This document shows, piece after piece, positions 2,303 through 63,837 of a DNA stretch of 64,000 bases. This DNA comes from Ostreococcus lucimarinus. Lineage: Eukaryota. Numbering within the stretch: position 1 is the first letter of the stretch; each line of letters starts with the position of its first letter. Under the pieces are notes generated by a model. That model was not told the DNA's origin and searched no databases. It saw only the letters and a program-made list of their open reading frames with translations. A program made the position numbers and the translations under genes. Location: NCBI GenBank assembly GCA_000092065.1, contig CP000598.1; one strand, given 5' to 3'.

Positions 2303-4834
2303 TTAGGAAACCTTATCCGTGCCTTTTACGCTGAGCCCGGTCATGGACGGCTTCGTCGGCATGGTGAACGCGGTGTAGTCCGCCGCCGTGGGCACCGTGA
2401 TGCTCGTGTCGTACGACATCCCGGAGCACGCCGACGCATCGGCGGGAGCAAGCATTTCGACACCACTTTCGAGTTTCAAGACGTACCGGTCGCCAGTCGA
2501 TGGTTGTTTGAACGTGGTGCCATCGGGGATCAGGACATCCGGACGGCGATGGTAACCATTGTTGTCGTCGCACTCCTCGTTGCCATACTGGTCGACCTCG
2601 GGCGCCGCGCGCGAACCAGTCATCGGATTGAAGCAAATGAACGGCGCGTCGCCCAACCAACCGCCTTCGTAACGCACGTTGAGATTCACCCCGGAGTAGT
2701 CGGTACCGGATGGAGAGCGCAGCAACACGGCGTCCGTGGGTATCTTGCCTTGAAGCTGGAGAGGCGCATCCATGAACTTCTTTGACGCGGAGTCCGAAGG
2801 ATCTTCGAGCCACGCCATGCCCTCCCAATTGCTTGAGCTCCACTCGTAGTGCACATCCAATTTGTTGGGTTCCTCGCAAACGTCGGTAGTGGCGGTGCAA
2901 CTCAAAGTGTCGAGGTTCGCAGGTGTAGCTTCGAAGAGAACCATATGAACTTCTCCCGAGTCAAAGAATGAGTTGGTTGGGTCCATTACGACTTCAGCGC
3001 CGAGGGTGCCGGAAACGTCTTCCTTCAACGAGCCGGTATCTTTGTCGAAGACGTACTTTTTATAAGTGCTTCGAGCGTCGTTGTATCCGTTCGGCGAGCC
3101 GTAGAACTGGCTGTCGTGACTGCTCGCACTCGATAGCTTCGTCTGGTCGATACACCGCTCGCCGCACGTGAGTGCGAGGTGGCTGCTGAGCGACCCAGGG
3201 GGGACGGTTTGCGCGTCAGACACTTTGAAGTGCGTCAGGTTAAGCAAACTCGCAGAGCCTCGGCCGAAGATGCTTCCCCAGCAGCGTATGATTTGGTTGT
3301 CAATGTCAGCCATCGTGAGCGCACGCGGAGTCGTGATTGAGTTCGTGTTCAGCGATCCACCGTTCCAAGTTCGCTTCGACGACAACACGAGTGCGTTCGC
3401 GTCGGAGTCATACCTGAACTTGACCTCAACTTCTGCAGCGTTAGTGTCATCCCAGAACCAGCCTGTGATCGTCGCCCCTTGGTAGTCGCTTGCGCTTCGC
3501 ACCGTCGCCGTGAACTTGTACAACACCCCGCGTGAGACTTTGAGCCTCTTGTTCACGTTCAGTATCGGATCATCCCAATCGACAATTTCCTCTACTACGT
3601 TCCCGTCGGTGAACGCGGTTTGAGCGATAGTCTTCTCGGCGGTACTGAGCGCGGTGTCGGAAATGTAGTCGTAATCGGAAATGTAGAGATTGCCCGGATA
3701 GTGCAGATCAGCATTATACGTCTTGCCGTCGCTGCCTGTAGCCTGAAGATGCACGTAGCTTTGAAGGTTCACCTTCGCCCCGTTGCTGTCGTACGCGCCG
3801 TAGCGCTCACCGAAGAACGATCTGTTCTCGAGTTCATCGCAGAATGACTGCCCGTACGCCTTCGTCTTGACGAGCGTAGCGGTAGTCACCAATTGACCCG
3901 CTTGTGTCGAACCATTATCAAAGTCGATGGTCTGGAAAGAGGCCTTCGTGATGTCGTTTTCTGCGCGCGATTTAGCACCCGCGGTGAATGAATTGCTGCC
4001 TCGTGTCACCTCTTCCCACCACGTGACCCCGGTCGCCGTGCAATCCGAATCCGCGTCGGTGGTTTCGCACTCGCGACGAACCACACCTTTGATGCGTTGG
4101 GACGCGGTCGAGCCAGTCGGCGATTGGTACGTAAAGGTAAAGTTTTTCACCAAGATTTTGTCAGACTTGATGGCGACGTCATCGCGCTTGACGATCATTT
4201 CCGTGTCGATGTTCGGCATTTCTGGGGTATCGCTGAGGGCTACCCAGACGTTCGTCTTGAAATCACGGGTATCGCTCGCGTCGTCGATGTCTGGGCCCGT
4301 GGCGTTGACGACCCAACGGTACGTAACCTTACCCTTGATTCGGTCGCCGTCGCTGTTGTCACAGTGGAAAGGATCGATCTCAGCGATGTATGGGCCAGTG
4401 TTCAGGTTCGCCGTCCAGTTCACCGAGGCGACGTAGCAAAGAACCATGTTTGGTATCTGGAAAATTTCGGTACTTACAGCGTCGACGAACGTCTCCGCCG
4501 GCGGCGCCGTGGCGTAGTCGGACGTCGAAGAGAACGAAGACACTTCGAGAGGCGTCACCTCGACGAGCGAACGACCATCGATTCGAGACGAACCAGAAGA
4601 CGTCGTCGAAACACCCTCTGACGGGATCATGGTGACTTTACGCGGCGTCAACGCCGCCTTGAGCGCGTTCGTCTTCGCCGCGCCCGACAGCCCGCTGACG
4701 GTGGTCGGGGTCGGGGCCGGGGCCGGGGCCGGGGTCGCGTCGTCATCCCTGAGCCCGATGCCGAGGCCGGTGCCAAGGGCGACCACCACGGCGGCGACAC
4801 CAACGATCGCGATCGCAACGCCACGTCTCACCAT
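2303..4834 (-). CDS. large secreted or membrane-anchored Ser/Thr-rich glycoprotein, function unknown
   Basis: 843-aa uninterrupted ORF. The hydrophobic N-terminus 'AIAIVGVAAVVVALGTGLGIGL' is followed by an (AP)n/PT linker. There are many N-x-S/T sequons and scattered Cys. The codon usage is coherent. Confidence 0.6.
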   Translation of the reverse strand: MVRRGVAIAIVGVAAVVVALGTGLGIGLRDDDATPAPAPAPTPTTVSGLSGAAKTNALKAALTPRKVTMIPSEGVSTTSSGSSRIDGRSLVEVTPLEVSSFSSTSDYATAPPAETFVDAVSTEIFQIPNMVLCYVASVNWTANLNTGPYIAEIDPFHCDNSDGDRIKGKVTYRWVVNATGPDIDDASDTRDFKTNVWVALSDTPEMPNIDTEMIVKRDDVAIKSDKILVKNFTFTYQSPTGSTASQRIKGVVRRECETTDADSDCTATGVTWWEEVTRGSNSFTAGAKSRAENDITKASFQTIDFDNGSTQAGQLVTTATLVKTKAYGQSFCDELENRSFFGERYGAYDSNGAKVNLQSYVHLQATGSDGKTYNADLHYPGNLYISDYDYISDTALSTAEKTIAQTAFTDGNVVEEIVDWDDPILNVNKRLKVSRGVLYKFTATVRSASDYQGATITGWFWDDTNAAEVEVKFRYDSDANALVLSSKRTWNGGSLNTNSITTPRALTMADIDNQIIRCWGSIFGRGSASLLNLTHFKVSDAQTVPPGSLSSHLALTCGERCIDQTKLSSASSHDSQFYGSPNGYNDARSTYKKYVFDKDTGSLKEDVSGTLGAEVVMDPTNSFFDSGEVHMVLFEATPANLDTLSCTATTDVCEEPNKLDVHYEWSSSNWEGMAWLEDPSDSASKKFMDAPLQLQGKIPTDAVLLRSPSGTDYSGVNLNVRYEGGWLGDAPFICFNPMTGSRAAPEVDQYGNEECDDNNGYHRRPDVLIPDGTTFKQPSTGDRYVLKLESGVEMLAPADASACSGMSYDTSITVPTAADYTAFTMPTKPSMTGLSVKGTDKVS

Positions 4835-12387: not shown

Positions 12388-13344
12388 TCAAATCAGCGCG
12401 ACGCCAGGAGACCACGGAAAGCGTCCCGCGAATCGTCGCCGAGGACACGCGTCTAAATACGTCCAAAACGATTTGAGTGATTTCACCGTTGAGCTATATG
12501 ACGCGCGTTCGTTGAACGGATCCAGTGCTTGCCCCGTCGACCCGACGTCGTTTCGACACCCGTACGGATCGCGCGCGAACGCATCGCACGCTTTCGCTTC
12601 GCGCGTCGCCAGTTCGTTTTCGTTCACCGCCGCGGTACCGATGTAGGTCATATTGCTCCAGGAATACCCCATCGCGTCGAGATGAAGCTTTTCGAACCGC
12701 GCGCGCTCGACGTGAAACCCGACGACGGTGATCTTTGAAGGAAACTTTCGAGCGAGTTGAAAGAACCGACACACGCTGAATAACGCGTGCTCGAACCCGT
12801 CGTTCGCGTGTTCTTCCGTGAACGTCCTAGACTCGACCTTCGCGTCGACGCCGAACCAATCGTTCGCCCTGGCGACTTGCCAATACGAGCTCGCCCGAGT
12901 CATCACCGCGCCGGCGTCGATTGATTTTCCTCCACTGAAAACGAGCACTGCGTGTGGGTTCCTCGCTGCCTCGCGAACACCGATCTCGATGTGTTCGACC
13001 AGCGACCGTACGTATCCTTCCGACGACGTTTGATCGCGCTCTAAAGCCCAGTCGCCCGGGTCTTCCGCGGCTTTCGCGAAATCGCTACCCAAGTAAACCG
13101 CGCGCGCGGGAACGACGACGAGCTCGTCCACGTCCGTCACCGCGGGCACTATCTTCTTCTCCTGTGCGCTCAGTCGCATCACCGTGTGCGTGATCGCTGC
13201 TCGCGGCGCATGATTCGTCCTCCTGAGCGCTTCTATCGTGACGCAACACACGCACAGAAGAAACCAGAGCGAACGTTCGAGGTTAAGAATCCTCGTCGCG
13301 CGCTTCGCCCACATCCGAGCGTATCGAGTGAACGCATACGTCAC
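12388..13344 (-). CDS. DUF218 (YdcF/ElyC/SanA-like) domain protein
   Basis: 'VVPARAVYLGSDF...HAVLVFSGGKS...' resembles the DUF218 core (a conserved ...SGG... after a beta-strand). The N-terminus is hydrophobic. Confidence 0.4.
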   Translation of the reverse strand: MTYAFTRYARMWAKRATRILNLERSLWFLLCVCCVTIEALRRTNHAPRAAITHTVMRLSAQEKKIVPAVTDVDELVVVPARAVYLGSDFAKAAEDPGDWALERDQTSSEGYVRSLVEHIEIGVREAARNPHAVLVFSGGKSIDAGAVMTRASSYWQVARANDWFGVDAKVESRTFTEEHANDGFEHALFSVCRFFQLARKFPSKITVVGFHVERARFEKLHLDAMGYSWSNMTYIGTAAVNENELATREAKACDAFARDPYGCRNDVGSTGQALDPFNERASYSSTVKSLKSFWTYLDACPRRRFAGRFPWSPGVALI

Positions 13345-13543
13345 GCGATCGCGGACTCGCGATGCGTACGTCGACGCGTTCGGCGCCGCGACGTCGTCGA
13401 CTCGTCGGCGGACGCGCGCGCGTGTCCTTCGTCGCGCGCTGTGCAGGGCCGGAGTTTTTCACGCCCTCGGCTGCGTCAAACAAAAACCCGTCCTCCGAAA
13501 CACACCGGCGTCCTCACACCGCCGCGCTCGCGGCGTCGCCTCG

Positions 13544-15880
13544 ATGCGTCTGCGCGTCGCGTCGCTCTTCTCCGGCATCGGCGGTCTCGATCTCGGGCTC
13601 GAGCGCGCCGGACACGACGTGGTGTTGCGCGTCGAGCGCGACGCGCACTGTCGCGAGTTGCTTCGACGGCAATACCCCGACGGCGCGCTCATGGACGACG
13701 TCGCCGCCGTCATGCCGCGCGATCTCGACGGCGTCGATCTGCTCGCCGCCGGGTTCCCGTGCAACGATTGCTCGTTCGAAAACGCGGCGCGACCGGGTTT
13801 GGAACACGGCCGCGACACGCGTCTCGTGCGACACGTCTTTCGCCTGCTTCGCGAGAGACGCGTGGAGTGGGTGCTCCTGGAGAACGTCGTCGGGCTTTTG
13901 CGTTGGCACAGGCGGCGTCGTCGGAACGAGCGCCAGGGAGAGAACACGTCGCGGTCGCGCGATGCGCGTGCGCGGCCGCCGGCGATCGATCACATCGTCA
14001 CCGAATTCGAAAAACTCGGCTACCGCTGGGCGTATCGCGTGGTCGATTTGCTCGCCTTTGGCGTGCCGCACAAGCGCCGACGCGTCTTCATCGTCGCGAG
14101 CGCGCACGGCGACCCGCGAGACGTGCTTCTGAGTCAAGACTCGCAGTGTCAAGGCCGGTGCGAGACTTTCGCGGCGCACGCGCGCGTCCACCGCCGTCGG
14201 TGTTACGACTGCTTCAACGCGCCGCCGCGCGACGCCGCGACGGTCGAAGCCGTGTCCATCGACGTCGGCGAGAACAGACGACCGCCTCTGCGCGACATTT
14301 GCCAGTGCTTGACGACGTCGAACGGGCGGCGGACGTGCGTGGTGACGCGCGCGGCGAACGACGCGCGCGAGACGTCGACGACGCGCGCGCTCGCCGTCGA
14401 GGACGCCGAACGCCTGATGGGATTCGAGCCGGGGTACACCGCGTCGTGCTACCCGATCGCCGACGCCAACGGGCGCGCGCCGATGAGTTTCAACGTCGAC
14501 GCGCAAACGCGCAAACGGTTCGCGTTGTTGGGGCTCGCGTGCGCGGTGCCTCAGAGTGCGTGGCTCGGCGAGCGCCTGCGAAACCCGTACGCCGTCAAGT
14601 TTCCGTACGCCGCGCTGTGCGCGCCGTTCCGCCGCGCGTGTCCGGGCGGGGACGACGACGACCAGGAAGGCGCGTGGCCGCTCGCAGCGTACAACGTATT
14701 CGAGCTCGACGACGCGGACGAGCCGAGATGGAAAAGCCGCCGACGCGCGCCGAAGACGCTCTCGGAATCCCCCGTCGTGCGCGCGTTCGTGCCGCTGGGT
14801 GAGTTTTTGAAGTTTCAACGTCGCGCGCGGGACGTCGATCCCGAAACTTTGCGCACGTACGCGCGGCGACTCCGCGCGAGCGGCCACGACGACGTCGACG
14901 AGCTCGTGCGTCTCGCGTTGCTCGGCGACGAGCGACGCGATGGCAAGCGTCGGCGGATCGCGGCGCCGCACGTCGGTACTACCGTTCGTCGCGCCGAATC
15001 CGTCTGGTCGTCGAGCGACGACGAACGCGATGATTCCCGAGACGACGATGCGATGCCGACGTTCGGCGCGCGCGCGTGGGTGCGGTGGCGAGGCAAACGC
15101 GGCGACGTGGCGACGCGTTGGCCGTGTCTCGTGCTCGACGCGGGCGAAGATGGGGTGCGAGGCGTGACGACGCATCGCCACGTGGTATTTTTCGACGCCG
15201 CGCGTTCGCACGCGCGCGTCAGATCGACGGATATCGTCGGCCGATTTGGTGGAGACGACGACGACGGCGACAATATATCAGAACGCGCGGACATCGTCGG
15301 CGCGATCGAGCGCGCGAGGGTGTGGAAACGCGACGATCGAAATCACGAGTACGACCCGATCGCGTGGTCGTTTCGCGAACCGACGGCGTGTCTCGAGTGC
15401 GCAACGTGTCGCGAAGACGCGCCGCCCGCGGTGTCGACGCCCGATCGCAGTCGCGGCGGCAACGACGGTGTGTTGTCGCGAAGTCTTCGATCGAGCTTTG
15501 CGTCGGATTCAAAAACATCATCATCATCGAAGTGTCCGCAAGCGACGGAAATAATTCCTCGCGCGCGCCTCGGGCACGTCGGCGCGACGCTCGCGTTGCG
15601 CCGCGGCGACGCCGTCGGACGAAGACTGCGCGTGTTTTGGCCCATCGAAAACGCGTTTTTCGCGGGCACGATCGCGGCGTTCGACAAACAAACGTACACG
15701 TTTCGCGTCGATTACGACGACGGCGACGTCGAGGTGGCGTTCAAGCCGTGGATGGAGTCGGTGTGGCCGCTGAGGGGTGAAGATGAGTTCGCGACGTGTG
15801 GGGTGAAAACCCCTCGTGCGATCACACCATTCAATCAAAACACGCCAGAAATCTGCGAAGCACCAAAGACTCACTTTTAA
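13544..15880 (+). CDS. DNA (cytosine-5)-methyltransferase with C-terminal PWWP/Tudor-like reader domains
   Basis: Motif I is 'LFSGIGGLDLG', motif IV is 'GFPCNDCS' (catalytic Cys), motif VI is 'ENVVGL', and the C-terminal part of the catalytic domain is 'LMGFEPGY...LLGLACAVPQSAW'. After the domain come 'AWVRWRGKRGDVATRWPCLVLD' (PWWP-like) and 'FWPIENAFFAGTIAAFDKQTYTFRVDYDDGDVEVAF' (Tudor/Agenet-like). The track ORF starts at 13238, but motif I lies immediately after the ATG at 13544. Confidence 0.8.
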   Translation: MRLRVASLFSGIGGLDLGLERAGHDVVLRVERDAHCRELLRRQYPDGALMDDVAAVMPRDLDGVDLLAAGFPCNDCSFENAARPGLEHGRDTRLVRHVFRLLRERRVEWVLLENVVGLLRWHRRRRRNERQGENTSRSRDARARPPAIDHIVTEFEKLGYRWAYRVVDLLAFGVPHKRRRVFIVASAHGDPRDVLLSQDSQCQGRCETFAAHARVHRRRCYDCFNAPPRDAATVEAVSIDVGENRRPPLRDICQCLTTSNGRRTCVVTRAANDARETSTTRALAVEDAERLMGFEPGYTASCYPIADANGRAPMSFNVDAQTRKRFALLGLACAVPQSAWLGERLRNPYAVKFPYAALCAPFRRACPGGDDDDQEGAWPLAAYNVFELDDADEPRWKSRRRAPKTLSESPVVRAFVPLGEFLKFQRRARDVDPETLRTYARRLRASGHDDVDELVRLALLGDERRDGKRRRIAAPHVGTTVRRAESVWSSSDDERDDSRDDDAMPTFGARAWVRWRGKRGDVATRWPCLVLDAGEDGVRGVTTHRHVVFFDAARSHARVRSTDIVGRFGGDDDDGDNISERADIVGAIERARVWKRDDRNHEYDPIAWSFREPTACLECATCREDAPPAVSTPDRSRGGNDGVLSRSLRSSFASDSKTSSSSKCPQATEIIPRARLGHVGATLALRRGDAVGRRLRVFWPIENAFFAGTIAAFDKQTYTFRVDYDDGDVEVAFKPWMESVWPLRGEDEFATCGVKTPRAITPFNQNTPEICEAPKTHF

Positions 15881-15996: not shown

Positions 15997-16914
15997 TCAG
16001 CAGTTGACAAAAAATAGTTTACAAAGATTTCGCGCGCGCTCGATGACTTCCATTTCGTCGTGCGTAGCGGCGAACTCCAATTCAGGCCACGTCACTAGAG
16101 GCGCGCGCTTTCCCGCGTGCGCGTTATGATTCTTTCGTCGTTCGATGGCGCCTTTGAAATCCAAGTCTTCACACCCGATGAAATGAGAACGCGCGCATAA
16201 CATTTCGAACAGTTTTGAATCGTTCGCGTCCTCAATTTTGAACCAACATTCCGCCGCTTCGTATCCAAGATTTGTGTATGTCGTCCACCACTCTAAACAT
16301 TGCACGTCGTGTCGCAAAGAGTTGAAAACGCTTATGTTGACCTCAAAATCGCGACGAATGTCCTTACCAGCCATTTCAGAGTTGAAATTTGTATCAAATT
16401 GCCACTTCGTTCCTCTGCAGCTGCGTATCACTTGGAGCGGATGTCGAACGATGAGGAAAGTATTCGTGAATACTTCGATTGATCTAATGGGAAATTGTGG
16501 TGAACTCGCCAGCCAGTTTGAGCTTCCGTTCACTCCGAATGTCTCGTGACCTATGTCTACGCCAACATCGCGAAATACTTGAGATACAAAGCCGGTTCCT
16601 GAATAGCCGGCTCCGGTTATGAGAGCTGCGGACGCGATTGCGGATTTGTCGCCCACCCGTACCGGTTTTGAACGACGTCGGAACGACGTCTCGCTGAGAG
16701 CATCTTCTGAGAGACATTGGTCTAGGCATGCGGCACAAACCGTTTCTGATGCAGTAACAAAGAACGAATCGTTCAAATTAACGTACCCCGTTAGCAATAA
16801 GGCGAGAATAGTCGACAGAAATCCACCGACCCTGGTAAAGCGCTCTCTGACTTTGACGAGCGAATACTCGTCACGAGTGACTCGAACTTCACACGCCAGC
16901 GGCGATTCGATCAT
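15997..16914 (-). CDS. type II membrane sulfotransferase-like protein
   Basis: An N-terminal TM anchor is followed by 'AALITGAGYSGTGF', a 5'-PSB-like P-loop (cf. the PKSGTT of carbohydrate sulfotransferases). 'IVRHPLQVIRS' is a 3'-PB-like RDP..vvS motif. Confidence 0.4.
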   Translation of the reverse strand: MIESPLACEVRVTRDEYSLVKVRERFTRVGGFLSTILALLLTGYVNLNDSFFVTASETVCAACLDQCLSEDALSETSFRRRSKPVRVGDKSAIASAALITGAGYSGTGFVSQVFRDVGVDIGHETFGVNGSSNWLASSPQFPIRSIEVFTNTFLIVRHPLQVIRSCRGTKWQFDTNFNSEMAGKDIRRDFEVNISVFNSLRHDVQCLEWWTTYTNLGYEAAECWFKIEDANDSKLFEMLCARSHFIGCEDLDFKGAIERRKNHNAHAGKRAPLVTWPELEFAATHDEMEVIERARNLCKLFFVNC

Positions 16915-17432: not shown

Positions 17433-18542
17433 TCAGGAATACGTGCTGCACAATTCTGTGACTTGTGCTTTTGCAGACGCGTCGTGAAGTGGATTCACCT
17501 TTAACCAATGCTTGCAGCGAGTACAGTAAATGTCGGTTTGGTTGTCGGTTGTTTTGGCGTTCCAATCTCGTTCCAATCTCGCGCCGATGTCCAGTTCTTC
17601 TGTATCTGAAATCGATTCAACGAAATCTAAGAGTAAATAACATTTGTACCCTTGAAGTCGGATGATTTCCTCCATTAACTCAATCGCTCTGTGAAGACTA
17701 AAGCTCGTGCGCTCGCGATACCACACCGCGGTGTACTCAAAAAACACATTTTTCACCGTTTTCGTTCTGAAGATGCGCATGCCGGACGACAAGACGCTCA
17801 GTTCATTACCTTCCGTATCTATGGCCAATATTTCAACGTCGTCATCATTCAAAGGGATGTCATCGAGCGCGATTGACGACACGATTTTGTGTCCAGCGCC
17901 GACGCCTTCGGCGTGTGTGTGAAACGTGCCAGAGCAAGTGTTGATCGGGGTGTCGATCGCGATCGGCACATCGCTGACGTAGTTGTTATACAACGAAACC
18001 CGTCTGACGAACTGCCGTGGGTACAAGGAAAACGTTTCCTGAATGCCAGAAACACAGAGAGGCAGAGGTTCTACGGCGTACACTCGGTACCCGCTGAGCA
18101 TGAAAATCACGCAGAAAAAGCATTCATGCGCTCCGATGTTTATTGTTGCACCTCTACCACGGGACACACTAGAAATCGCATTAGATTTGTATTCGACTGG
18201 CGTCGAAGCCAATAGATTGCGCAGAATTTGTTGAATTTTCAATTCGCCTCCGTTCACTGGTAACCACTCAAACGTGTCTTCCCTCTTCAGCACGATAGGG
18301 AGATTTACGTAACCGTACACTTCAGTTTTTACGTCCGCCTTGTCTTTGACGAGGGTATGCGTGTCTTCGACGCCGTTTAAGGTGATTTCGCTGATGTTGG
18401 TGTGGCGAGGCGTGAAAACGACCTCTTGTTCGGGGCTCGCTGACACGCTGTAGTTGACACCACGTCGGAGCAGCGTAGGAATAATAAAGAGCGAAAGGAG
18501 AAGCGTATGTTTCGCACGCACTGAAACTTGCAGACTCTGCAT
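17433..18542 (-). CDS. FkbM-family methyltransferase, type II membrane topology
   Basis: N-terminal signal anchor. 'ATINIGAHECF...RVYAVEPLP' is the FkbM DxGAN...afEP motif, and 'ILAIDTEGNELSVLSSG' matches the LKIDvEGaEl.vL.G motif. Confidence 0.55.
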   Translation of the reverse strand: MQSLQVSVRAKHTLLLSLFIIPTLLRRGVNYSVSASPEQEVVFTPRHTNISEITLNGVEDTHTLVKDKADVKTEVYGYVNLPIVLKREDTFEWLPVNGGELKIQQILRNLLASTPVEYKSNAISSVSRGRGATINIGAHECFFCVIFMLSGYRVYAVEPLPLCVSGIQETFSLYPRQFVRRVSLYNNYVSDVPIAIDTPINTCSGTFHTHAEGVGAGHKIVSSIALDDIPLNDDDVEILAIDTEGNELSVLSSGMRIFRTKTVKNVFFEYTAVWYRERTSFSLHRAIELMEEIIRLQGYKCYLLLDFVESISDTEELDIGARLERDWNAKTTDNQTDIYCTRCKHWLKVNPLHDASAKAQVTELCSTYS

Positions 18543-24687: not shown

Positions 24688-25674
24688 GTGAAGCCGTGCG
24701 CAAAAGTTCGGCGGTCGTCGATAGGTCTGGCAACGTCGGTCATGCGTTGGTTGAGGGGACGTGGTGTCAAGGCGATAATGTGCGTCGCCCTTGTCGCAGG
24801 TTTCGCCAAGGTACCAGATCTGCACGTCAATAAGTATACTATGACACAGACACTGCAAGGCGACGGCTTTGGTTCACAGTTTCAAAATATCACATCTACC
24901 GCGGCTGCTCTGCACGTCAATAAGTGTACTATGACACAGACACTGCAAGGCGACGGCTTTGGTTCACAGTTTCAAAATATCATATCTACCGCGGTTTTCG
25001 CTCAAACCTTGAACAAACACTTTTGCGTGACCCCTATCGAAAGCATGGAGCACAACTACGACAATCGCTCAACGTTCCTTCGAGAAGTCAGCGAACTGAT
25101 TAATTTACCAGTACTTTCAAGTCAAGAGGACATGGACATTGAAAAGTGCGAGGTTAAAAAAGGCTGGCTGGATAGCTACATAGTTCAGGAAGCAAATCAG
25201 TTGGACGTTCGTACAAAATTGGGTAACATTCGAAAGCAGTTCTTGGGTAACAAGCGCTCGTTGTCGGAACTTCGTAAACACGCTGCCGTGCACATCAGGA
25301 GGCAGAATTCTTTTGATAATCGAAACACTGTTTCTCATGATGAAGTCGTGTGCTTTGTGATGAGGGAAATTCTCACTCAAAACAGCAATATTCAGTTTCA
25401 TGTATTTAGCCAGGGCGATATTTCGGAGTTTTGGCGCTACCAGAACGATTCAAGAATCGTCCTACGTCTCGACGAACCCATCAACGTGACGTTCACTGAA
25501 ATGGTTGTCGCCAAAATTTTGGTCACAGCCACGTCGTCATTTAGCTATGCAGCAGCACTTCTCTCAGAGGGTGAGATATGGGCCCCAAGACCGTTCTGGC
25601 ACAACTACCCTTCCTTCTGGAAGACATATCAGCTTTCTCGTACATTGTCTAACTTTGAGACATGCCTACCATGA
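24688..25674 (+). CDS. GT11-like alpha-1,2-fucosyltransferase-like glycosyltransferase carrying an internal in-frame tandem duplication
   Basis: 'LQGDGFGSQFQNIISTAVFAQ' matches GT11 motif I (GGLGNQMFQYAFA), and the C-terminal 'ATSSFSYAAALLS' matches the (S/T)TFS..A motif. There is an N-terminal TM. Confidence 0.5.
   Translation: MKPCAKVRRSSIGLATSVMRWLRGRGVKAIMCVALVAGFAKVPDLHVNKYTMTQTLQGDGFGSQFQNITSTAAALHVNKCTMTQTLQGDGFGSQFQNIISTAVFAQTLNKHFCVTPIESMEHNYDNRSTFLREVSELINLPVLSSQEDMDIEKCEVKKGWLDSYIVQEANQLDVRTKLGNIRKQFLGNKRSLSELRKHAAVHIRRQNSFDNRNTVSHDEVVCFVMREILTQNSNIQFHVFSQGDISEFWRYQNDSRIVLRLDEPINVTFTEMVVAKILVTATSSFSYAAALLSEGEIWAPRPFWHNYPSFWKTYQLSRTLSNFETCLP
24821..25000. repeat. 2 x 90-bp tandem duplication inside the GT11-like CDS (in frame, duplicating motif I)
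   Basis: 'tgcacgtcaataagt[a/g]tactatgacacagacactgcaaggcgacggctttggttcacagtttcaaaatatca[c/t]atctaccgcgg' occurs twice, at 24821 and 24911. Confidence 0.8.
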
Positions 25675-26986: not shown

Positions 26987-27958
26987 CTACAACCCCTGGC
27001 AGAGCACTTGAGCAACATGCCGCATGTGGCGAAATCGCATGTTCAAGAATAAATCGTCGGCGCAATCATGATTCAAACCTCTTGGGAGGTATTCAAAGCC
27101 CAACGAGGTGATAAAGTCGCGAAGTTCATGCTCGCCATGCTGATCAGCGTAGCCGGTAACCACTAGCTCCGGTTGAATCCAGACAACTCGTTTCGATAGC
27201 CAATGCCGAGCCCCTTTGATAATCTCTAAGTCATGGCCCTGTGCGTCAATCTTCAACATGTCGATATATTGGACGCGGCCACCTTGAACACCTAGAGACT
27301 CTGACTTTGGAACTGACACGGACCAAGGCAGAAGGGTAAAGAAATCATGAAGATTCCAAACAGGGACCTGAATTTCATTCTGCACGTCAAACTTGACCGG
27401 TTTGTGTAAGCTTGATGTCCCTGGATCACCAGCGGTCGCGTAAAATGTCTGCAAGTGTAGAGGAGAAGAGCCCATCGCCACACAAGATAAAAAGTAGCGT
27501 TTGCCAACTAAGTCCAACGGCACACAGAGGTCTCCTGTGGAGCAAGCACAACCCTTCAGTATGTTCTTGCAACTTGTCGGATTAGGCTCAAACGCAAAAA
27601 CTGTCAGCTGATCCGGATCGGAAGTGCTGCTGAACCATAAGGCGGAGTTTGGAGCGTTGTAAGACTCACCAATAGATATTTTCACACGCCGCGTATGCCT
27701 CGGCAGTGCAATTTTTCCACGCCGCAGGTGCACTGGAAGTAAGGCACGCGTGGCGTGACGAGTGCGCGAGATATCTTTGATACGTTCGGCCCCTACGAGT
27801 GGATCACTTTTTGGTTCTTCACAGCTACTCCCAAGTGAGTCGCTGTACGATTCAGTCACAGGAAGTCCGCGTGCTGACGCAAACGCAAGGAGTACGAGCG
27901 AACCCAGCGAACCGAGCAAACAGCCCGCAACCAACCTAAATTTCATACTGAATTTCAT
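26987..27958 (-). CDS. FkbM-family methyltransferase, type II membrane topology
   Basis: 'VFAFEPNP' and 'IDMLKIDAQGHDLEIIKGA' are FkbM motifs. The probable start is the Met at 27958 ('MKFSMKFRLVAGCLLGSLGSLVLLAFA', a signal anchor). The track ORF extends to 28195, but its first 79 aa look non-coding. Confidence 0.5.
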   Translation of the reverse strand: MKFSMKFRLVAGCLLGSLGSLVLLAFASARGLPVTESYSDSLGSSCEEPKSDPLVGAERIKDISRTRHATRALLPVHLRRGKIALPRHTRRVKISIGESYNAPNSALWFSSTSDPDQLTVFAFEPNPTSCKNILKGCACSTGDLCVPLDLVGKRYFLSCVAMGSSPLHLQTFYATAGDPGTSSLHKPVKFDVQNEIQVPVWNLHDFFTLLPWSVSVPKSESLGVQGGRVQYIDMLKIDAQGHDLEIIKGARHWLSKRVVWIQPELVVTGYADQHGEHELRDFITSLGFEYLPRGLNHDCADDLFLNMRFRHMRHVAQVLCQGL

Positions 27959-28694
27959 TCTGACAGGGACTCGCACGTTCTCGTGTCGCTTAAAGCCCGT
28001 ATTTTGCTCCATCTCTTCGCGGTCTAAATACTGTATAAAGTGGGTGTGTAGTACGCTCTTTTCCGTTCTTCGGCCTGGGTGTTCAGTATGCTGTTTCCGG
28101 TCTTCAGTTTCTTCATCTCGACGGCTTCGGGGCGACCACTTTGGCCGGCGACGAGTTTGCCCTGTACCATAGGACATCGTGGCCGCACACAGCATTTCGA
28201 GGCCTATATATTATAATATCTCTTGTTTTTGTCAGAGGCCTATTTCTCAGAAACATCGTGTCCTTATGCGAAAATGAGGTGGATTAAGAGATGCGAAATT
28301 CGAAAATAGAATCGGCGATTTATTCCGATAAGGGCCGTTTTTTCCCACATCGGAATGAATCGGGCCTTTGTATTCCGAAAAGATACTTGTCAAAATAGCG
28401 CGACTCGTCACGTGACGAGTTAATTTTAGGGGGTCCTATTCCGACAACGCTATTCCGGCTATCTCTTTTGAAAAACTAGCGACGCGAAATGAAGACGCGC
28501 AGTCGCCCCACTAGTGCGCGTCACTTGTTGAACTCGTTCTTCACCGAACGGGGTTTTAAAGACGTACATGTGTCCTCAGGGAACCGCATGCGGATTGTCG
28601 TCGATCTCCTTTGACCTCGGACGCTGAGGCCTCGGACCTTAAAGTCCCCGCTTCCGACGTAAAAAGTTCTGTCAGTGCGAGTTTTAGCCACGCT

Positions 28695-34976: not shown

Positions 34977-36575
34977 GTGAATACGATTCACGTTCGAACG
35001 CTCTTGGAGTTGCGCTTCGACATGCTACTGAAAGTAGCTTGCGATTCCGGTACTATGGCTCGCCGAACGGTCATTCTGTTTGCGGTTGTGGCCGTGTTGC
35101 TTTGGAGACTGTTCTTGTTCGATATTGGTGACAGCAGATTTAAAAGTATCACACCACATCCATCACCGGAGCAAAGACGACAACAAAATCACCGAGCAAG
35201 ATTTTTAGAGCTCACACATAACGAAACCTACAAAACCGCAAATGTCGAAGAGAGGAACGATGAACATTTCAAGATGGAACGATATGAAGAATCACCTGCA
35301 AGATTACAAGCGTCAGCTAATTTGGATACACAGAGCACCCGCGTCTTGGTTTTAAGTTGGCATGGTGGTACCGCGAAAGACACAGCGATGCAACTTCATA
35401 ACGCTGGAGTTCGTCGCGAAAATATCGTGTGTGGAGGCATTATTTGGTACGAGAAAGTCCTCGATTCTGCTCCTTGCGTAAGAGATCATGCATTATCTGA
35501 GGCTTTGAATCGATTGACACAGCGTGTAAGAGGTTTTCCCATGGCTATCGATCCAGCAGACGAGAAATGGTTGGATGATTTCGCAGCTGAGGCTAGCGAG
35601 ATGCTATCTACGTTCCATGTGCTCTGGGCGGACTTTCCTACCGCCCTTTGTCTTCTATTAAACAAGATTGCCCCACATAAATTGATAGTACGCACAACGC
35701 ATCGTTTTGATCACCAGGTGGCTCATTCGAAGATAAATCACACGTCATTTGTACGTAAAAGCCTCATGCGCGTTCTACGCGAGGCGCCAATACTTCTTGC
35801 TGGGAGCGAGTACGATCGGGCATACATGAAGTTCTACACATGTCGTGAACCTGAACGTCTATTCATAACATGGCCAACACAGTATTTGGAGAGTTTGGGC
35901 GCATCGCGTACACTTACGAACGAGTCATGCTTCATCTTGTGGGGGGGGTCGAACAACGAAGGTAGTTCAAGCATATCGATTACATTTGATAGAATACGAG
36001 TCCTCGGGCGCACTATGGAGTCACAAGTTCCCATGAAAAGTCGCCCAACGAGTTTTGCTCACGCTTCGGAATTTGCAACAGAGCAAGCCGTAGTATATTT
36101 CCCATACAGTATGCCGAGTTCCGCATTTCATGAACTTTACGCGAGTGGTGTCCCCCTTTTCGTGCCATCGTTGACTTTCATGCTCGATGAGTTTTCAAAA
36201 AACCGTGGCTATCCTCACAAAGTAGCTGGTAATGTCCCTTGTGCTTCACCATCTTTTTACGAAAACGCTGAGGCAGTGGAGTTCTGCTGTCTTGACGATA
36301 CTGGGGTATGTCATGATCCAAATTCATGCGATCCTGAAGCGCTGAAACAATGGGTATCATTAGGTGACCTTTACACCACCCCGCATGTGACGTATTTCGA
36401 CAGTGCCGAGCATGCTGTGGAACTCATGAGCAACTGGATGAAGCATCCAGACCAACGGGATCGAACGATCGAGGACATGGAGTCACACAACGTTGCTAAC
36501 CTTCGATGGAATGCTCGTGTCGTTCAAGCCGCAATTCGTCATGTCAAACAAAGCAGCGCGCTTGAACTGGATTGA
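34977..36575 (+). CDS. putative type II membrane glycosyltransferase (GT-B-like C-terminus)
   Basis: 'RRTVILFAVVAVLLWRLFLF' is a signal anchor. The C-terminal 'VVYFPYSMPSSAFHELYASGVPLFVPS' resembles the GT1/GT4 donor-binding E...G.P motif. The last roughly 47 codons are duplicated at 40078..40213. Confidence 0.4.
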   Translation: MNTIHVRTLLELRFDMLLKVACDSGTMARRTVILFAVVAVLLWRLFLFDIGDSRFKSITPHPSPEQRRQQNHRARFLELTHNETYKTANVEERNDEHFKMERYEESPARLQASANLDTQSTRVLVLSWHGGTAKDTAMQLHNAGVRRENIVCGGIIWYEKVLDSAPCVRDHALSEALNRLTQRVRGFPMAIDPADEKWLDDFAAEASEMLSTFHVLWADFPTALCLLLNKIAPHKLIVRTTHRFDHQVAHSKINHTSFVRKSLMRVLREAPILLAGSEYDRAYMKFYTCREPERLFITWPTQYLESLGASRTLTNESCFILWGGSNNEGSSSISITFDRIRVLGRTMESQVPMKSRPTSFAHASEFATEQAVVYFPYSMPSSAFHELYASGVPLFVPSLTFMLDEFSKNRGYPHKVAGNVPCASPSFYENAEAVEFCCLDDTGVCHDPNSCDPEALKQWVSLGDLYTTPHVTYFDSAEHAVELMSNWMKHPDQRDRTIEDMESHNVANLRWNARVVQAAIRHVKQSSALELD

Positions 36576-44069: not shown

Positions 44070-45116
44070 GTGGTGAGTATGGCGAAACCGAACCCCGGGC
44101 GGTTGAAAAGTTCGTTCCCGGCTGTTGCGTCACTTGTTAAGAGGAGTACTTTGGTGACTGTTTGCGCCTTCTGCGCCGCCTGTATCGCGTGCTGGTACAT
44201 TCGTACAGCTTTGAGTGAATCTCCTGTACGTGACAATAACGCAGCTCGTTCCAGCAGATTTAACTGCGGCGTCCGGCAGGCTCAGCTTCTATCGGTCGAT
44301 GGAAATCCGTGGCTTTTTCATTCGGGCGATGCGATCACTTCTACTGTTAAGGCGAAGGGCACTTTCGAGCCAGCGATAAGCAATTTGATTCGGCGTCAAC
44401 TCAGTATTGCAGATGGAATGATGGTCGATATAGGTGCAAATGTCGGTGTTATGACGAGTGTTGCGCTTTCTCTGGGCCGCGAAGTGGTCGCCGTGGAGGC
44501 ACTCCCGGATAACGCGAATCTGTTACGCTGTAGCGCAGATCACAACGGCTGGACCACGCTGTTGAAACTACATAATACGCCACTTGCTGATCCTGCGTCA
44601 AAATCCGAACGGTTTTGTGTGTGCCGGCCTATTGGAAACCCGAGCGACGGTATTCTAGTACCGTTTACTCAGTTTGCAGATCATCCTTTCTGTGGAGGTG
44701 GCCAAAGAAAAACAAAAGGAGCGACGGGGCACTGTGCCGAAGAAATGAAGTCCATAACCCTTGATGAAATACTAGGCAGTGGTTCGAATCCTATCGCCTT
44801 CATGAAAATGGATATTGAAGGAAATGAGTGTCGCGTCTTGAAAGGCGCGGCGGCGACCTTACATGGTGGCAACCCATGTACAATTTTAACTGAGTATAAT
44901 CCTGGTCTTCAGCAATATACCAATTGTACACTCATCGACATGATCGATCACATGAAGCTATTAGGTTACTTACCGCACACTTTTCAGCGACAAGGATGCT
45001 CTTTGAAGGAGCTTACATCCGTTCAGGCAGGAAAAATGAGCGCGCCAGGATCGGTGCATAATATTTGCTGGAAACCTCTTTTAGTTCCCAAACATTGCGT
45101 GAAAAAAGCGAGCTGA
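44070..45116 (+). CDS. FkbM-family methyltransferase, type II membrane topology
   Basis: 'MMVDIGANVGVMT' is the DxGAN.G motif, with 'VVAVEALP' and 'FMKMDIEGNECRVLKGA'. The signal anchor is 'LVTVCAFCAACIACWYI'. Confidence 0.7.
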   Translation: MVSMAKPNPGRLKSSFPAVASLVKRSTLVTVCAFCAACIACWYIRTALSESPVRDNNAARSSRFNCGVRQAQLLSVDGNPWLFHSGDAITSTVKAKGTFEPAISNLIRRQLSIADGMMVDIGANVGVMTSVALSLGREVVAVEALPDNANLLRCSADHNGWTTLLKLHNTPLADPASKSERFCVCRPIGNPSDGILVPFTQFADHPFCGGGQRKTKGATGHCAEEMKSITLDEILGSGSNPIAFMKMDIEGNECRVLKGAAATLHGGNPCTILTEYNPGLQQYTNCTLIDMIDHMKLLGYLPHTFQRQGCSLKELTSVQAGKMSAPGSVHNICWKPLLVPKHCVKKAS

Positions 45117-51000: not shown

Positions 51001-53277
51001 GTGATGTTCGCGTGCGATGCGCGGGCGACTCTGCCCGCGCATCGAACGCAGCGGCGCGCGCGACGACGAGCGCTTCCGATAGTACTCGTCGCGCTGTGCG
51101 CGTGCTGGCTGTGCAGAGAGCGCACGCGCGAGCGCGCCCGAGAAAGCGATGATGTTGCACTCCAACGTAAAAAGTCGCGAGTGGTCGTCGAACCGTGCAT
51201 CGGAGGTCGGCTTGAAGCGTCGATAGCCGACGAACCGGAATCGATTCGCTTCGCTACGTTTGCCTTTGCGCGGAACGCTGGCAAAAGATGGAGCGTGGAA
51301 AGCACGAAGATAGCTTTGCGGCTCATGTACTCGTCGTTGGCGAGATCGCAAGCAAGGAAACCGCCGTGTTTACACGTGTACACGGACACGCCGGGCGTGA
51401 TTCCGCTCAAGACCACGTTTGGCACAGAGGTTGACGTAATCACGCACGCGTGCGACTCGCAGTCTTTTCCGCCAAACGCTTACACGAACGTCGGGCCGTG
51501 GGCGGCGCTTTCACGAGCGAAACTTGATGCTGTAGAACATTTAATGACGGTGTTCGGTGCGAGGGTGATATGGATCGATCTCGACACTCTCGTCTTCGTA
51601 GACTTGGGACAGACGTTCAGGCAAAGCTCGTCGTGGGTCGTGGGTTACCAAAGAGGCGCGCACTGCGAGGGAATAAGAGCATGTTTTCATTCCGCGCACT
51701 CTTCGGTTCGACCGGAATTCGACGCACTCGGAGATCTCTGGTCGCTCGATCGCGAAACAATAGCAAAGGTCAGAGACTTTGAACGGAGGAGGATTACGTC
51801 CAGCGCGAGGACGCCACCGAAATACGATTTACAAACGTATTACGGACAGATGCTCGAGGAAGAAATGTTATCGAGCGATGTGTTGCTGCACAAACTTTTG
51901 TCGAGTCATAACTTTGGTTTCTTTTGTTCCAACTTCATGCATCCGACGGTTGAAAACTTGGAACTTTCAATTGACGAGGAGGGGAATCTCGTCTGTCCTC
52001 GACGGCCGGATGTCAAAATGGGCGAACGCGTGGGCGCGATTTCGTTCACAGCCAAGACGTTTCAAAGTATGTTTTCCGCAGACGGCGATGTATTCGAAAA
52101 CATAGCGCATCCCGGAGCGCGACGATGGCTGCGCGACTGGTTTTATGGTCCTATCGCTAGAGGGAGCAACGGCTCGGCGCGCCCCGGCGTCGACAAAAAC
52201 GTCGATTCAAAGCCGAAGACTGATCACGAGCGAATGGTTTTCACGCCAATGAAGCCATCGAGCGATAGGTACGACGACACAGATATCGTTTCAGTTAAGC
52301 GATGGTACGGTCGGCTCGGCAATAGGGTACGGATATTTGCGATGATGCTCGAGGACGCGCTGGTCCGCGGTTGTCACGTGCGCATACTCGACGACATACT
52401 ACCGGGATGGAGATCAGAAAATACGTTTTTCGCAAACAAACAGATCGATGGTGTGCGGAATAAGCGTGCTGCGAAGAAGTGTCAGAAACTGAGCGGGCGT
52501 CGCTGGTACGATACGTACCTCAAATCGAAAGATGCGCTTCGTCAACAGAACGGTTTTGCAGACGACCGAATGTCTATACCAGACGGGTCTGTCGTAACCA
52601 ATGCTATCTCGCGTTACTTTGAAACGAACGTGACGCACGCGTTTGGTCGTGCCTGCGAGAGTGTCGGCGATGATGTGCTCGCGGTGCACGTGCGCGCGGG
52701 AGACATCGTCAGCGGCTCCTACAGTCGTTGGACGGGTCATTTCGTTGCGAAAGAGCCGTCAAAGCACACGACGTACGGACCTTTTCCGACGTCGTACTAC
52801 GCGAGCGTGCAGAGTTACGCTTCGGAATCGGCATTACAAGTGCGAGTTTTCTGCGAAGACTTGAACAATCCAACGTGTATGTTTTTTCAACAGCTCGCCG
52901 CGGTACTTCCAAACGTCACCATGAGACTTGGACGGGACTTGATTTCTGACTTGGTGGAGTTTAACTGCGCCGCTCGCGTAGCGTTTTCGTACGGCTCGTT
53001 TCGAGATGCGCTAGTTCTAAGAAATCGTCCTTTACGAACGCACGACTTTTTCTTTGACAGAAATGAAGCCGAGACTACGTGCTCGCGCGCGTCGCGTGGA
53101 TCGAGCGCGCGACACCGCCGGTATTTCTTCGCGTTGAAAAGCGACGAAATAGAGTATCAAAAATGGATTCGCCGGAATAACTGGCGCAACACGGCGAGGC
53201 AGCGCCACTTGGTTGACAAACACTATCAAATTGGTTTCGTTGAATGCGAGAACCGTGGAAAGGATTTCTTCGGGTAG
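51001..53277 (+). CDS. two-domain glycosyltransferase: an N-terminal GT-A-like nucleotide-diphospho-sugar transferase domain and a C-terminal O-fucosyltransferase/GT23-like GT-B domain
   Basis: The TM anchor is 'LPIVLVALCACWL'. 'ARVIWIDLDTLVFVDL' is a DxD-type motif. The C-terminal half has 'WYGRLGNRV' (GG.GN(Q/R) motif I) and 'LAVHVRAGD' (the HxR.GD motif of POFUT/FUT8-type enzymes). The start is uncertain in the GC-rich 5' part. Confidence 0.45.
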   Translation: MMFACDARATLPAHRTQRRARRRALPIVLVALCACWLCRERTRERARESDDVALQRKKSRVVVEPCIGGRLEASIADEPESIRFATFAFARNAGKRWSVESTKIALRLMYSSLARSQARKPPCLHVYTDTPGVIPLKTTFGTEVDVITHACDSQSFPPNAYTNVGPWAALSRAKLDAVEHLMTVFGARVIWIDLDTLVFVDLGQTFRQSSSWVVGYQRGAHCEGIRACFHSAHSSVRPEFDALGDLWSLDRETIAKVRDFERRRITSSARTPPKYDLQTYYGQMLEEEMLSSDVLLHKLLSSHNFGFFCSNFMHPTVENLELSIDEEGNLVCPRRPDVKMGERVGAISFTAKTFQSMFSADGDVFENIAHPGARRWLRDWFYGPIARGSNGSARPGVDKNVDSKPKTDHERMVFTPMKPSSDRYDDTDIVSVKRWYGRLGNRVRIFAMMLEDALVRGCHVRILDDILPGWRSENTFFANKQIDGVRNKRAAKKCQKLSGRRWYDTYLKSKDALRQQNGFADDRMSIPDGSVVTNAISRYFETNVTHAFGRACESVGDDVLAVHVRAGDIVSGSYSRWTGHFVAKEPSKHTTYGPFPTSYYASVQSYASESALQVRVFCEDLNNPTCMFFQQLAAVLPNVTMRLGRDLISDLVEFNCAARVAFSYGSFRDALVLRNRPLRTHDFFFDRNEAETTCSRASRGSSARHRRYFFALKSDEIEYQKWIRRNNWRNTARQRHLVDKHYQIGFVECENRGKDFFG

Positions 53278-63177: not shown

Positions 63178-63837
63178 ATGCAGCCGGAAGATGCCGGGGA
63201 AGGGGTGACGGTGCCCTCCCAGGTTGGCGATGACGCGCTCGGAATCGTCCCCGTCGACGAGTACGAGACGGTGTTTTCGTTTCCAACCGTCGGAAAGGAC
63301 TCTGAGCTGTGTGTTACGCGATGTCACGGGTTCTGGCTGACATTTTACGTGGACGATACTCGCTCTGTCAGTGGCCAAGGCCCGCGAGCGAACAAAACCA
63401 AGTACGCCAGGAGCATGCGAGCTTTCAAGGTGCGAGCTTCCAAGCGCGATCCGCCGAAGTTTTTCGTATCGACACCGCCTGCGGGATTGTTCTCACATCG
63501 AGATATCGTTTGGCAATGTGATGTTCAGTGGCCTTACGAGAAAAGCGCGAGTAATTGGCTGCACGCCGTGATCCCGGCGGAGAGGTTGCTAGATTTCCGA
63601 CGCGGCGTGCAGTGCGACGCCGCCACAGAGTTCCGCGTTTATTCTAGATACAAGAAAGGGAGGGGAACAAACAGCGTGGGGTCATTATACACGAATATAA
63701 CCATCTGGCATTGCTTTTGTGGTCCTGAAGACCATTCGGTTGATGCCAAGGAAAAGTTTGCCAAGCTCTGCAGCGGGAAGGCGAAGCGCATCTCGAGAAA
63801 GGTGGGCTGTCAATGTCGTTTAGGGTTTAGGGTTTAG
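63178..63837 (+). CDS. hypothetical protein, 3'-truncated by the telomere (the in-frame stop is supplied by the telomeric repeats)
   Basis: A 219-aa ORF of unknown family. The frame reads into (TTTAGGG)n as ...LGFRV* with no native stop codon or 3' UTR. Confidence 0.35.
   Translation: MQPEDAGEGVTVPSQVGDDALGIVPVDEYETVFSFPTVGKDSELCVTRCHGFWLTFYVDDTRSVSGQGPRANKTKYARSMRAFKVRASKRDPPKFFVSTPPAGLFSHRDIVWQCDVQWPYEKSASNWLHAVIPAERLLDFRRGVQCDAATEFRVYSRYKKGRGTNSVGSLYTNITIWHCFCGPEDHSVDAKEKFAKLCSGKAKRISRKVGCQCRLGFRV

Follow-up and report, generated by a model that had tools for sequence, protein, structure and literature searches.

In a 64,000-nucleotide stretch of Ostreococcus lucimarinus DNA (contig CP000598.1; called the window below, at its full length), the gene at positions 13,544 to 15,880 encodes a 778-residue C5-cytosine methyltransferase with chromatin-reader modules in its C-terminal part. 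We consider it fairly probable that this protein is a member of a chlorophyte-specific methyltransferase clade, with a catalytic module derived from bacteria and a cassette for targeting to chromatin, and that the gene, located on the small outlier chromosome (SOC), is the fast-evolving paralogue of a core-type gene that O. lucimarinus also has, at a housekeeping locus. Its most likely function would be reader-guided, probably de novo, DNA methylation. The gene is one uninterrupted, intronless open reading frame (ORF) running from ATG to TAA on the plus strand. Its translation agrees end to end with XP_001422300.1/ABP00617.1, a “predicted protein” of O. lucimarinus CCE9901, and independent metagenome and SRA contigs hold the same gene with the same neighbors. 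An earlier note on this DNA, made from the letters alone, had described a C5-cytosine methyltransferase with two reader modules and a DNMT3-like architecture; as detailed below, its observations were largely right and its interpretation half right.

Catalytic domain and family placement

The N-terminal part of the protein is matched by Pfam DNA_methylase (PF00145; E = 2.9e-32, 112.8 bits, cut-off 22) and by NCBIfam dcm (TIGR00675; E = 1.4e-32, 113.7 bits, cut-off 100.65). Alignment with M.HhaI and the columns across 74 homologues show that motifs I, IV, VI, VIII, IX, and X are all present in canonical order (Table 1), with the Cys and ENV motifs intact, which confirms the assignment as a C5-cytosine methyltransferase. 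With all catalytic motifs intact, the protein appears to be a catalytically competent enzyme, and we infer that it methylates DNA. The earlier note had also remarked on PCN where PCQ is usual in motif IV. This reading (GFPC73N) is correct, and PCN is the form of DNMT3A too (GGSPCNDLS), yet the residue after Pro-Cys varies freely within the family (Mamiellales have N, Bathycoccus-like and bacterial members have Q, and core chlorophytes have I, V, T, or P), so that PCN is not diagnostic of the family.

A search with the single sequence found M.HhaI at E = 5e-12 and DNMT3A at only 9e-4. Against the PDB, a profile built from 19 family sequences scored 75 bits with HhaI, 64 with HaeIII, 44 with DNMT2, and 39 with DNMT3A/B, followed by DNMT1 (24), DRM (23), and DNMT5 (7r76; 22). 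An AlphaFold (AF2) model, built on 74 homologues and having a predicted local distance difference test score (pLDDT) mostly above 90 over residues 1–466, was compared with the PDB using Foldseek and matches the folds of M.HhaI, M.HaeIII, DNMT2, and DNMT3. Because the whole-model E values lie between 3e-13 and 1e-10 for HhaI, DNMT2, and DNMT3 alike, the fold alone cannot settle the family.

The nearest nonalgal proteins are Dcm-like enzymes of about 440 residues (P0099; 34% identity over residues 3–403, E = 1e-48). They belong to a bacterial family found widely across Myxococcota, Actinomycetota (Rhodococcus/Nocardia), Planctomycetota, and further groups. In some members, the enzyme is fused to Vsr, a DNA T:G mismatch endonuclease. 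These enzymes have the order of motifs I to X in common with the window protein, as well as at least the first part of the extension that follows motif X (“WP.AAW”), but they keep PCQ and GNAV and lack the Cys4 insert and every chromatin module. In the algal protein, the extension is predicted with confidence (pLDDT 86–95) and contains the near-invariant residues W378, P379, A382, P410, L418, and R442. On sequence evidence, the catalytic module, including this extension, descends from a bacterial Dcm-like enzyme. The Cys4 insert is situated within the variable/target-recognition region. Its four cysteines are invariant across the algal members, the bacterial relatives being gapped at these columns, and it probably binds zinc.

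The nearest proteins overall are chlorophyte methylases with a PWWP domain, from Trebouxia, Chlorella, Auxenochlorella, Coccomyxa, Dunaliella, Haematococcus, Tetradesmus, and Cymbomonas. A neighbor-joining (NJ) tree of the catalytic region, calculated for algal and bacterial sequences only, with a numpy distance/NJ script and 100 bootstraps, separates the algal from the bacterial sequences and places the window protein with these chlorophyte proteins and with P0003, a core-type Ostreococcus sequence discussed below. In published phylogenies, the chlorophyte enzymes likewise form a clade of their own, named “Chlorophyta DNMT6-like” in 2023 (eLife; PMC10538959) and “ChloroDNMT” in 2025 (Molecular Biology and Evolution; PMC12344493); the latter study concluded that their PWWP was acquired independently of DNMT3. 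XP_001422300 is absent from the table of the 2023 study and was not found in the supplements of either study, so its membership of the family rests on its homologues and on its paralogue in the same species, XP_001417930, which is explicitly included in the 2023 tree of the clade. Like the published ChloroDNMTs, which are chlorophyte-restricted C5-methyltransferases and often bear a PWWP, the window protein has these same algal proteins as homologues. Unlike them, it is an accelerated, SOC-resident paralogue with a degenerate PWWP, and neither PMC10538959 nor PMC12344493 mentions a mono-CXXC unit or an RDM15-type Tudor. By these comparisons of sequence, the protein most probably belongs to the chlorophyte-specific ChloroDNMT clade and is DNMT3-like by analogy only. 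We know of no ChloroDNMT member that has been functionally characterized.

In a Pfam scan with E values up to 10, no match was obtained to ADD, PHD, or helicase domains, to the BAH, replication-foci (RFD), and embedded chromo domains that characterize the DNMT1, CMT, and Dim-2 architectures, or to the C-terminal SNF2-type ATPase of DNMT5. The view that the architecture is neither Dnmt1- nor CMT-like is thus upheld.

The C-terminal reader cassette

The Tudor domain follows a linker of two conserved helices, contains the stretch “FWPIENAFF...YDDGDVEV” (residues 698–731), and is of the PTM/DIR17 type, passing the Pfam gathering cut-off for PF21743 by a narrow margin (28.3 vs 27.2 bits). Its best match in the PDB is the Tudor of Arabidopsis RDM15/PDS5C with H3K4me1 (7de9), found by phmmer at E = 1.7e-7 and by the family profile at 8.8e-10. 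The Tudor model (pLDDT 85–97) superposes on 7de9 with a template modeling (TM) score of 0.90 and a root-mean-square deviation of 0.8 Å at 32% identity (Foldseek). In RDM15, the ligand is bound by an aromatic cage of W616, Y623, and Y641; D643 and D645 hold the two protons of monomethyl-lysine, and E647 binds H3R2 (PMC8184781). These six residues align with W699, F706, Y724, D726, D728, and E730 of the window protein, among which W699, D726, and D728 are invariant in the family. By analogy with RDM15, the ligand of the Tudor would most likely be H3K4me1.

The Tudor domains of RDM15/PDS5C and MSH6 have the same single-Tudor fold, an identical or conservatively replaced cage, and the same two Asp residues, and the plant RDM15-type Tudor also ties a histone mark to DNA methylation, through RNA-directed DNA methylation. 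Unlike in PDS5C and MSH6, which are a cohesin regulator and a mismatch-repair protein, the Tudor is here fused directly to a methyltransferase; such a fusion goes unmentioned in preprints that deal with the PDS5 and MSH6 Tudor. An exhaustive HMMER search with residues 605–745 gave 530 representatives, in which the whole cassette occurs in ChloroDNMT relatives only. By itself, the Tudor is also found, frequently as an array, in other chromatin proteins, among them FAR1-type, ORC1/Cdc6-like, nucleoplasmin-like, and bromodomain-GATA proteins, and it has weak matches in a Trebouxia ChloroDNMT and in a second Mamiellales paralogue of about 1000 residues. A further Mamiellales family of methylase-like proteins of about 1000 residues (P0022–P0037, P0048, and P0063) has in common with the enzyme the half from ENV to motif X and gives weak PWWP and Tudor matches; among the gene calls listed, its proteins appear to begin after motif IV.

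The PWWP-derived module is recognized by orthology and fold. Its motif “RWPCLVLD” (residues 525–532) aligns exactly with the “YWPGVALH” PWWP motif of the orthologues, which in full length are 43–49% identical and have their PWWP match at the same position. Six aligned orthologues were scanned in full against PF00855: four pass the gathering cut-off of 25.6 bits (P0008, P0010, P0052, and the P0074-type sequence; 28.3–42.2 bits), and P0003 and P0016 fall just below it (25.3 bits). All 11 family segments that were scanned match PF00855, the best at 4e-12, and a profile of the region finds the PWWPs of NSD2, MSH6, NSD3, and BRPF1 in the PDB. Foldseek with the C-terminal part of the AlphaFold model returned dozens of PWWP structures, including those of MSH6, NSD3, BRPF1, NSD2, and DNMT3B (prob 0.97–1.0, E = 2.5e-3 to 3e-2, TMt 0.4–0.55, for a module with pLDDT of only 50–88), which agrees with the five-stranded barrel and C-terminal helix of the PWWP fold. 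Of the cage, W526 and F549/F550 are retained. We also considered R558, at the position of the “FAWV” Trp, as the third cage residue and discarded it, since the alignment with MSH6 and NSD2 puts the cage residue in “FFD/FFG,” that is, at F549/F550.

Between the PWWP-derived module and the Tudor lies a mono-CXXC zinc knuckle, matched by PF15626 at E = 2.3e-21 (76.2 bits, cut-off 20). The pattern CxxCxxC...C (C616, C619, C622, and C664) is conserved in the family, and the loop between these cysteines is predicted to be disordered, with low pLDDT at residues 632–659. With CXXC domains of the DNMT1, MLL, and CFP1 type it has in common a zinc-binding unit of the CGxCxxC type beside a DNA methyltransferase; unlike them, the algal knuckle is a single unit of four Cys with a long disordered insert, a half-domain for which recognition of CpG is hypothetical. 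A full-text literature search for PF15626 found nothing relevant, and the role of the unit is taken from the Pfam name only. The mono-CXXC unit, the Cys4 insert, and the bacterial-type extension had all been missed in the earlier note. Its tandem of PWWP-like and Tudor-like readers stands in the Tudor half, which both Pfam and the structure prediction bear out, and in the PWWP half only by descent and fold; the modules measure about 95 and 55 residues, respectively, and not about 60 each. The description as aromatic cages likewise fits the Tudor, which keeps W699, F706, and Y724; to the PWWP it may apply in part.

Several observations weigh against the reading that we favor. The PWWP segment of the window protein matches PF00855 at only E = 0.038 (14.9 bits), below the gathering cut-off; compared with its orthologues, it has 17 residues fewer between strands 2 and 3, R525 where they have Tyr or Phe before Trp-Pro, and R558 in place of a near-invariant Trp. 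In the sister SOC copies (the O. tauri-type P0004, P0002, and P0012 from RCC789), the PWWP is wholly deleted. With the module eroded here and lost in its sisters, the full logic of three readers cannot hold for the window paralogue. The mono-CXXC score may be inflated if the Pfam seed contains the window protein itself, as the very high value suggests, and in motif X the Asn of GNAV, present in most relatives, is replaced by Leu. Finally, comparison with a natural allele that is 98% identical gave 11.5 synonymous and 15.5 nonsynonymous differences, corresponding to a ratio of nonsynonymous to synonymous rates (dN/dS) of about 0.45, a value that derives from 27 substitutions only and is thus based on small counts. 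Regarding the PWWP itself, the alignments indicate that it is real by descent and eroding in the SOC lineage.

Table 1. Positions of the methyltransferase gene, its motifs and domains, and other methyltransferase-type genes in the window
Feature	Position	Strand	Details
Complete coding sequence	13544..15880	+	778 aa plus TAA; XP_001422300.1 / ABP00617.1
C5-cytosine methyltransferase core	13544..14593	+	residues 1–350, motifs I to X
Motif I, LFSGIGG	13565–13585	+	F9, G11, G13/G14
Motif IV, GFPC73NDCS	13751–13774	+	P72-C73
Motif VI, LLENVVG	13874–13894	+	E113-N114-V115
Motif VIII, PHKRRRVFIV	14066–14095	+	R178, R180
Cys4 insert after motif VIII	14147..14212	+	C202, C206, C220, C223; residues 202–223
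Motif IX, VEDAERLMGF	14396–14425	+	DAERLMGF
Motif X, LLGLACAVP	14525–14551	+	GLACAV
Post-motif-X extension	14594..14941	+	residues 351–466; AWPLAAYN 14672–14695, PLGEFL 14792–14809
Divergent shortened PWWP	15056..15343	+	residues ~505–600; AWVRWRG, R525-W526-P527, FF549-550, C-terminal helix IVGAIERARVW
Mono-CXXC zinc knuckle	15377..15553	+	residues 612–670; C616-x2-C619-x2-C622 plus distal C664
Two-helix linker and PTM/DIR17-type Tudor	15554..15778	+	linker residues 671–688, Tudor residues 689–745
Disordered C-terminal tail	15779..15877	+	residues 746–778; AF2 pLDDT <50
Three FkbM (Methyltransf_21) genes and one Methyltransf_22 gene	17433–18542, 26987–28195, 44070–45116, 53706–54743		

Paralogues and chromosomal setting

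In the NJ tree, 91 of 100 bootstraps unite the window protein with P0001, P0002, and the O. tauri-type P0004, and with RCC789 P0012 added the support is 54 of 100. This SOC-type group has long branches, and its sister is a compact, core-type clade of proteins (800–850 residues) with an intact PWWP. In two species, represented by P0003 and the O. mediterraneus-type copy, the core-type gene adjoins RbcX among housekeeping genes. P0003 is identical in 110 of 111 positions to the N-terminal sequence that the eLife supplement prints for O. lucimarinus XP_001417930, which means that O. lucimarinus has both paralogues. The same is true for clade D, with P0012 (RCC789) and P0166 (O. mediterraneus). 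A further O. lucimarinus protein encoded outside the window, XP_001422099 (supplement file 9 of the eLife 2023 study), reads “VLVCGLMTREYEGSW” at the site of motif IV, without Pro-Cys. Its partner in the published tree is Micromonas XP_003064391 (99.7/100 support), and this third DNMT-like protein of the species may be a paralogue that has lost catalysis.

The window gene lies on the SOC of O. lucimarinus. XP_001422300.1 is encoded on a record of 149,386 bp, and the SOC of this species, chromosome 18, measures 150 kb (PMC5082852, Table 1 therein). The assignment fits the gene content, glycosylation genes being the signature of the Mamiellales SOC: in Pfam scans of about 40 window ORFs we found at least six glycosyltransferases (GT17, STELLO, GT61, GT90, GT8, and one further type), four nucleotide-sugar enzymes (GDP-mannose-dehydratase-type epimerases, UDP-glucose dehydrogenase, and UDP-GlcNAc 2-epimerase), and a nucleotide-sugar transporter, along with a BCCT transporter gene and a Myb gene as neighbors of the methyltransferase gene. 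Positions 63,818–64,000, up to the end of the window, hold 26 perfect copies of the plant-type telomere repeat GTTTAGG; the window therefore represents the last 64 kb of the chromosome, and the gene lies about 48 kb from the telomere. A sharp compositional boundary runs near position 16,000. The GC content at third codon positions is 77–78% for the methyltransferase, Myb, and BCCT genes and 51–59% for the genes that follow downstream (ORF 15997–16914, FkbM, and GT17). A block of normal GC content thus ends with the methyltransferase gene, and low-GC DNA of the SOC type adjoins it.

The gene had been described as sitting next to a transposon-rich island, which proved wrong. Its neighbors are BCCT, Myb, FkbM, and glycosyltransferase genes, and the scans of about 40 ORFs show nothing transposon-like near it; the sole such ORF (56093–58015, minus strand, 640 aa) encodes a Ty1/copia reverse transcriptase (RVT_2, E = 1e-43) and is 40 kb away, in the lowest-GC trough of the window (42–43%). 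Long ORFs that overlap the gene (13514–15211 on the minus strand, 13186–14802, and 15076–15780) and the in-frame stretch upstream of its ATG (13238–13543) have no Pfam matches and were rejected as genes or coding sequence; they are Arg-rich artefacts, because DNA of 66% GC yields such ORFs by chance. Elsewhere in the window, a 90-bp unit occurs twice with 97% identity at 24819–24994, inside the unannotated ORF 24688–25674, which has no Pfam match. The ORF 2303–4834 (minus strand, 843 aa) matches no Pfam family at E ≤ 0.01, and neither 51001–53277 (plus strand, 758 aa) nor 34977–36575 (plus strand, 532 aa) matches one at E ≤ 0.001; these three are probably SOC orphan genes.

Given this location, the gene could be a decaying or noncatalytic SOC duplicate, either a DNMT3L-like cofactor or on its way to loss, with the core-type paralogue doing the work. 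Such a gene would have the long branches of the SOC-type clade and a PWWP that is eroded here and deleted in sister copies, one of which (P0012) also lacks the CXXC unit, and the dN/dS value, small as the counts are, is high for an enzyme. Variation also affects the C-terminal tail: most metagenomic alleles encode 745 residues, two deletions totaling 99 nt having taken most of the tail after the Tudor (allele L167:4001–6238 compared with window 15768–15877). In addition, SOC genes turn over fast, only 11% being orthologous between O. tauri and O. lucimarinus (PMC5082852). We nevertheless regard decay as unlikely. The protein has kept all catalytic motifs and the complete Tudor cage, its reading frame is uninterrupted in the genome as in many metagenomic alleles (a cluster of 188 members), and the allele comparison shows no frameshifts and leaves every catalytic and cage residue unaltered. 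Despite the fast turnover, at least two Ostreococcus clades have kept the gene on SOC-like contigs. Next to the O. tauri-type orthologue lie GT61 and GT90 genes, and the GT90 there is 32% identical (E = 3e-58) to the GT90 of the window. A C5-methyltransferase gene on O. tauri chromosome 19 is, moreover, transcribed and regulated (see below). The pattern of substitutions indicates that the constraint on the gene is relaxed but real.

The SOC has been called the “viral immunity chromosome” (PMC5082852), and the gene might accordingly encode a methylase of virus–host conflict, which would mark self DNA or target viral DNA at specific sequences in the bacterial style, its readers being secondary. 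In O. tauri, ostta19g00045 on chromosome 19 is annotated “5-cytosine methyltransferase,” has its best matches only in Mamiellales, and is over-transcribed in OtV5-resistant lines, with a log2 fold change of 3.46 (PMC5082852). The catalytic module, too, is nearest to bacterial and phage enzymes of the restriction–modification type, some of which are fused to Vsr or lie beside McrB-like genes. We judge this reading improbable, however. Among the window ORFs scanned there is no cognate nuclease or Vsr, and the conserved chromatin-reader cassette favors targeting guided by nucleosomes over targeting guided by sites. The authors of PMC5082852 judged methylation-based silencing of chromosome 19 unlikely, and that ostta19g00045 is the P0004/XP_003084365 (CAL58430) orthologue is itself only probable. 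An origin from a prasinovirus or giant virus was also considered and rejected: a scan of IMG/VR gave only relatives of 30–39% identity, no closer than the bacterial ones, and nothing points to a prasinovirus source. The best long match in that scan (L089:4953–9010) contains two C5-methylases in tandem, of which the second belongs to the P0099 type, the nearest to ChloroDNMTs, followed by an ORF of 522 aa that looks McrB-like by eye, in the style of a prokaryotic restriction–modification cassette.

Proposed function

The DNMT3-like architecture proposed in the earlier note holds as a functional analogy only. Animal DNMT3A and DNMT3B also combine a PWWP reader with a catalytic domain, in a logic of reader-guided de novo methylation, and have PCN in motif IV; the catalytic loop of the window protein, PCNDCSFENAARPGL, resembles PCNDLSIVNPARKGL of DNMT3A, and the 2023 study states that the clade “seems to be diverged from DNMT6 and DNMT3” (PMC10538959). 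A true DNMT3-family de novo enzyme, that is, an orthologue or early offshoot that has kept an ancestral PWWP, is nonetheless very unlikely. The family profile scores HhaI and HaeIII (75 and 64 bits) about twice as high as DNMT3A/B (39 bits), the 34% identity and the C-terminal extension are held in common with a specific bacterial family, and Asn after Pro-Cys is limited to Mamiellales within the family. Published trees do not join the catalytic domain to the DNMT3/DRM clade, and the 2025 study sets ChloroDNMT apart, with an independently gained PWWP (PMC12344493). The protein lacks the ADD domain and has an additional CXXC unit and Tudor, and its PWWP and other readers stand C-terminal to the catalytic domain, not N-terminal as in DNMT3. 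An RNA (tRNA) methyltransferase like DNMT2 or DNMT6, as the provisional label “DNMT6-like” (PMC10538959) and the higher score of DNMT2 than of DNMT3 in the PDB profile search (44 vs 39 bits) could suggest, is scarcely credible, since DNMT2 and DNMT6 consistently lack companion domains (PMC12344493), the window protein has three chromatin or DNA modules, its top matches HhaI and HaeIII are DNA methylases, and bacterial relatives are paired with Vsr.

We therefore return to reader-guided DNA methylation by a ChloroDNMT of bacterial ancestry, from which we infer a substrate, sequence context, histone ligand, and biological role in conditional terms. The algal lineage would have added the Cys4 insert and the C-terminal PWWP/mono-CXXC/Tudor cassette to a bacterial catalytic module. 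In the present-day protein, the Tudor would dock on a lysine in a low methylation state, which the analogy with RDM15/PDS5C suggests is most likely H3K4me1. Contacts with DNA or the nucleosome would come from the CXXC knuckle and the remnant of the PWWP, and the catalytic domain would then methylate cytosines close by, probably de novo. DNMT1 and DNMT3 are missing from Mamiellales, which use DNMT5 for maintenance (PMC5082852, PMC10538959), and the enzyme would complement DNMT5 in this lineage.

A bolder version of this scheme, which we think has little chance of being right, makes the SOC ChloroDNMT the writer of an epigenetic switch, in which recognition of H3K4me1 or another low-methyl lysine by the Tudor would direct de novo methylation, and this would help to toggle the glycosylation clusters of the SOC between virus-susceptible and virus-resistant expression states. 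If true, it would explain why this gene is among the few that the SOC has kept in different Ostreococcus species and why resistant lines show induction of the C5-methyltransferase gene of O. tauri chromosome 19.

The gene is already in databases, its family has been named, and the kind of system is not new. What is added here is an RDM15-type Tudor with a complete H3K4me1 pocket, a CXXC unit, and an SOC paralogue with a decaying PWWP. Mamiellales (Ostreococcus, Micromonas, and Bathycoccus) have dense CG methylation, for which, to our knowledge, discussion has until now been confined to the maintenance-type DNMT5; ChloroDNMTs are obvious candidates for de novo methylation in these algae. One of the two O. 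lucimarinus paralogues has been overlooked in a published survey, and it is the copy on a fast-evolving, antiviral-linked SOC that sheds its PWWP and keeps its catalytic motifs and Tudor. The fusion of a methyltransferase to an H3K4me1-type Tudor offers a concrete, testable link from histone marks to DNA methylation in a genetically tractable picoalga.

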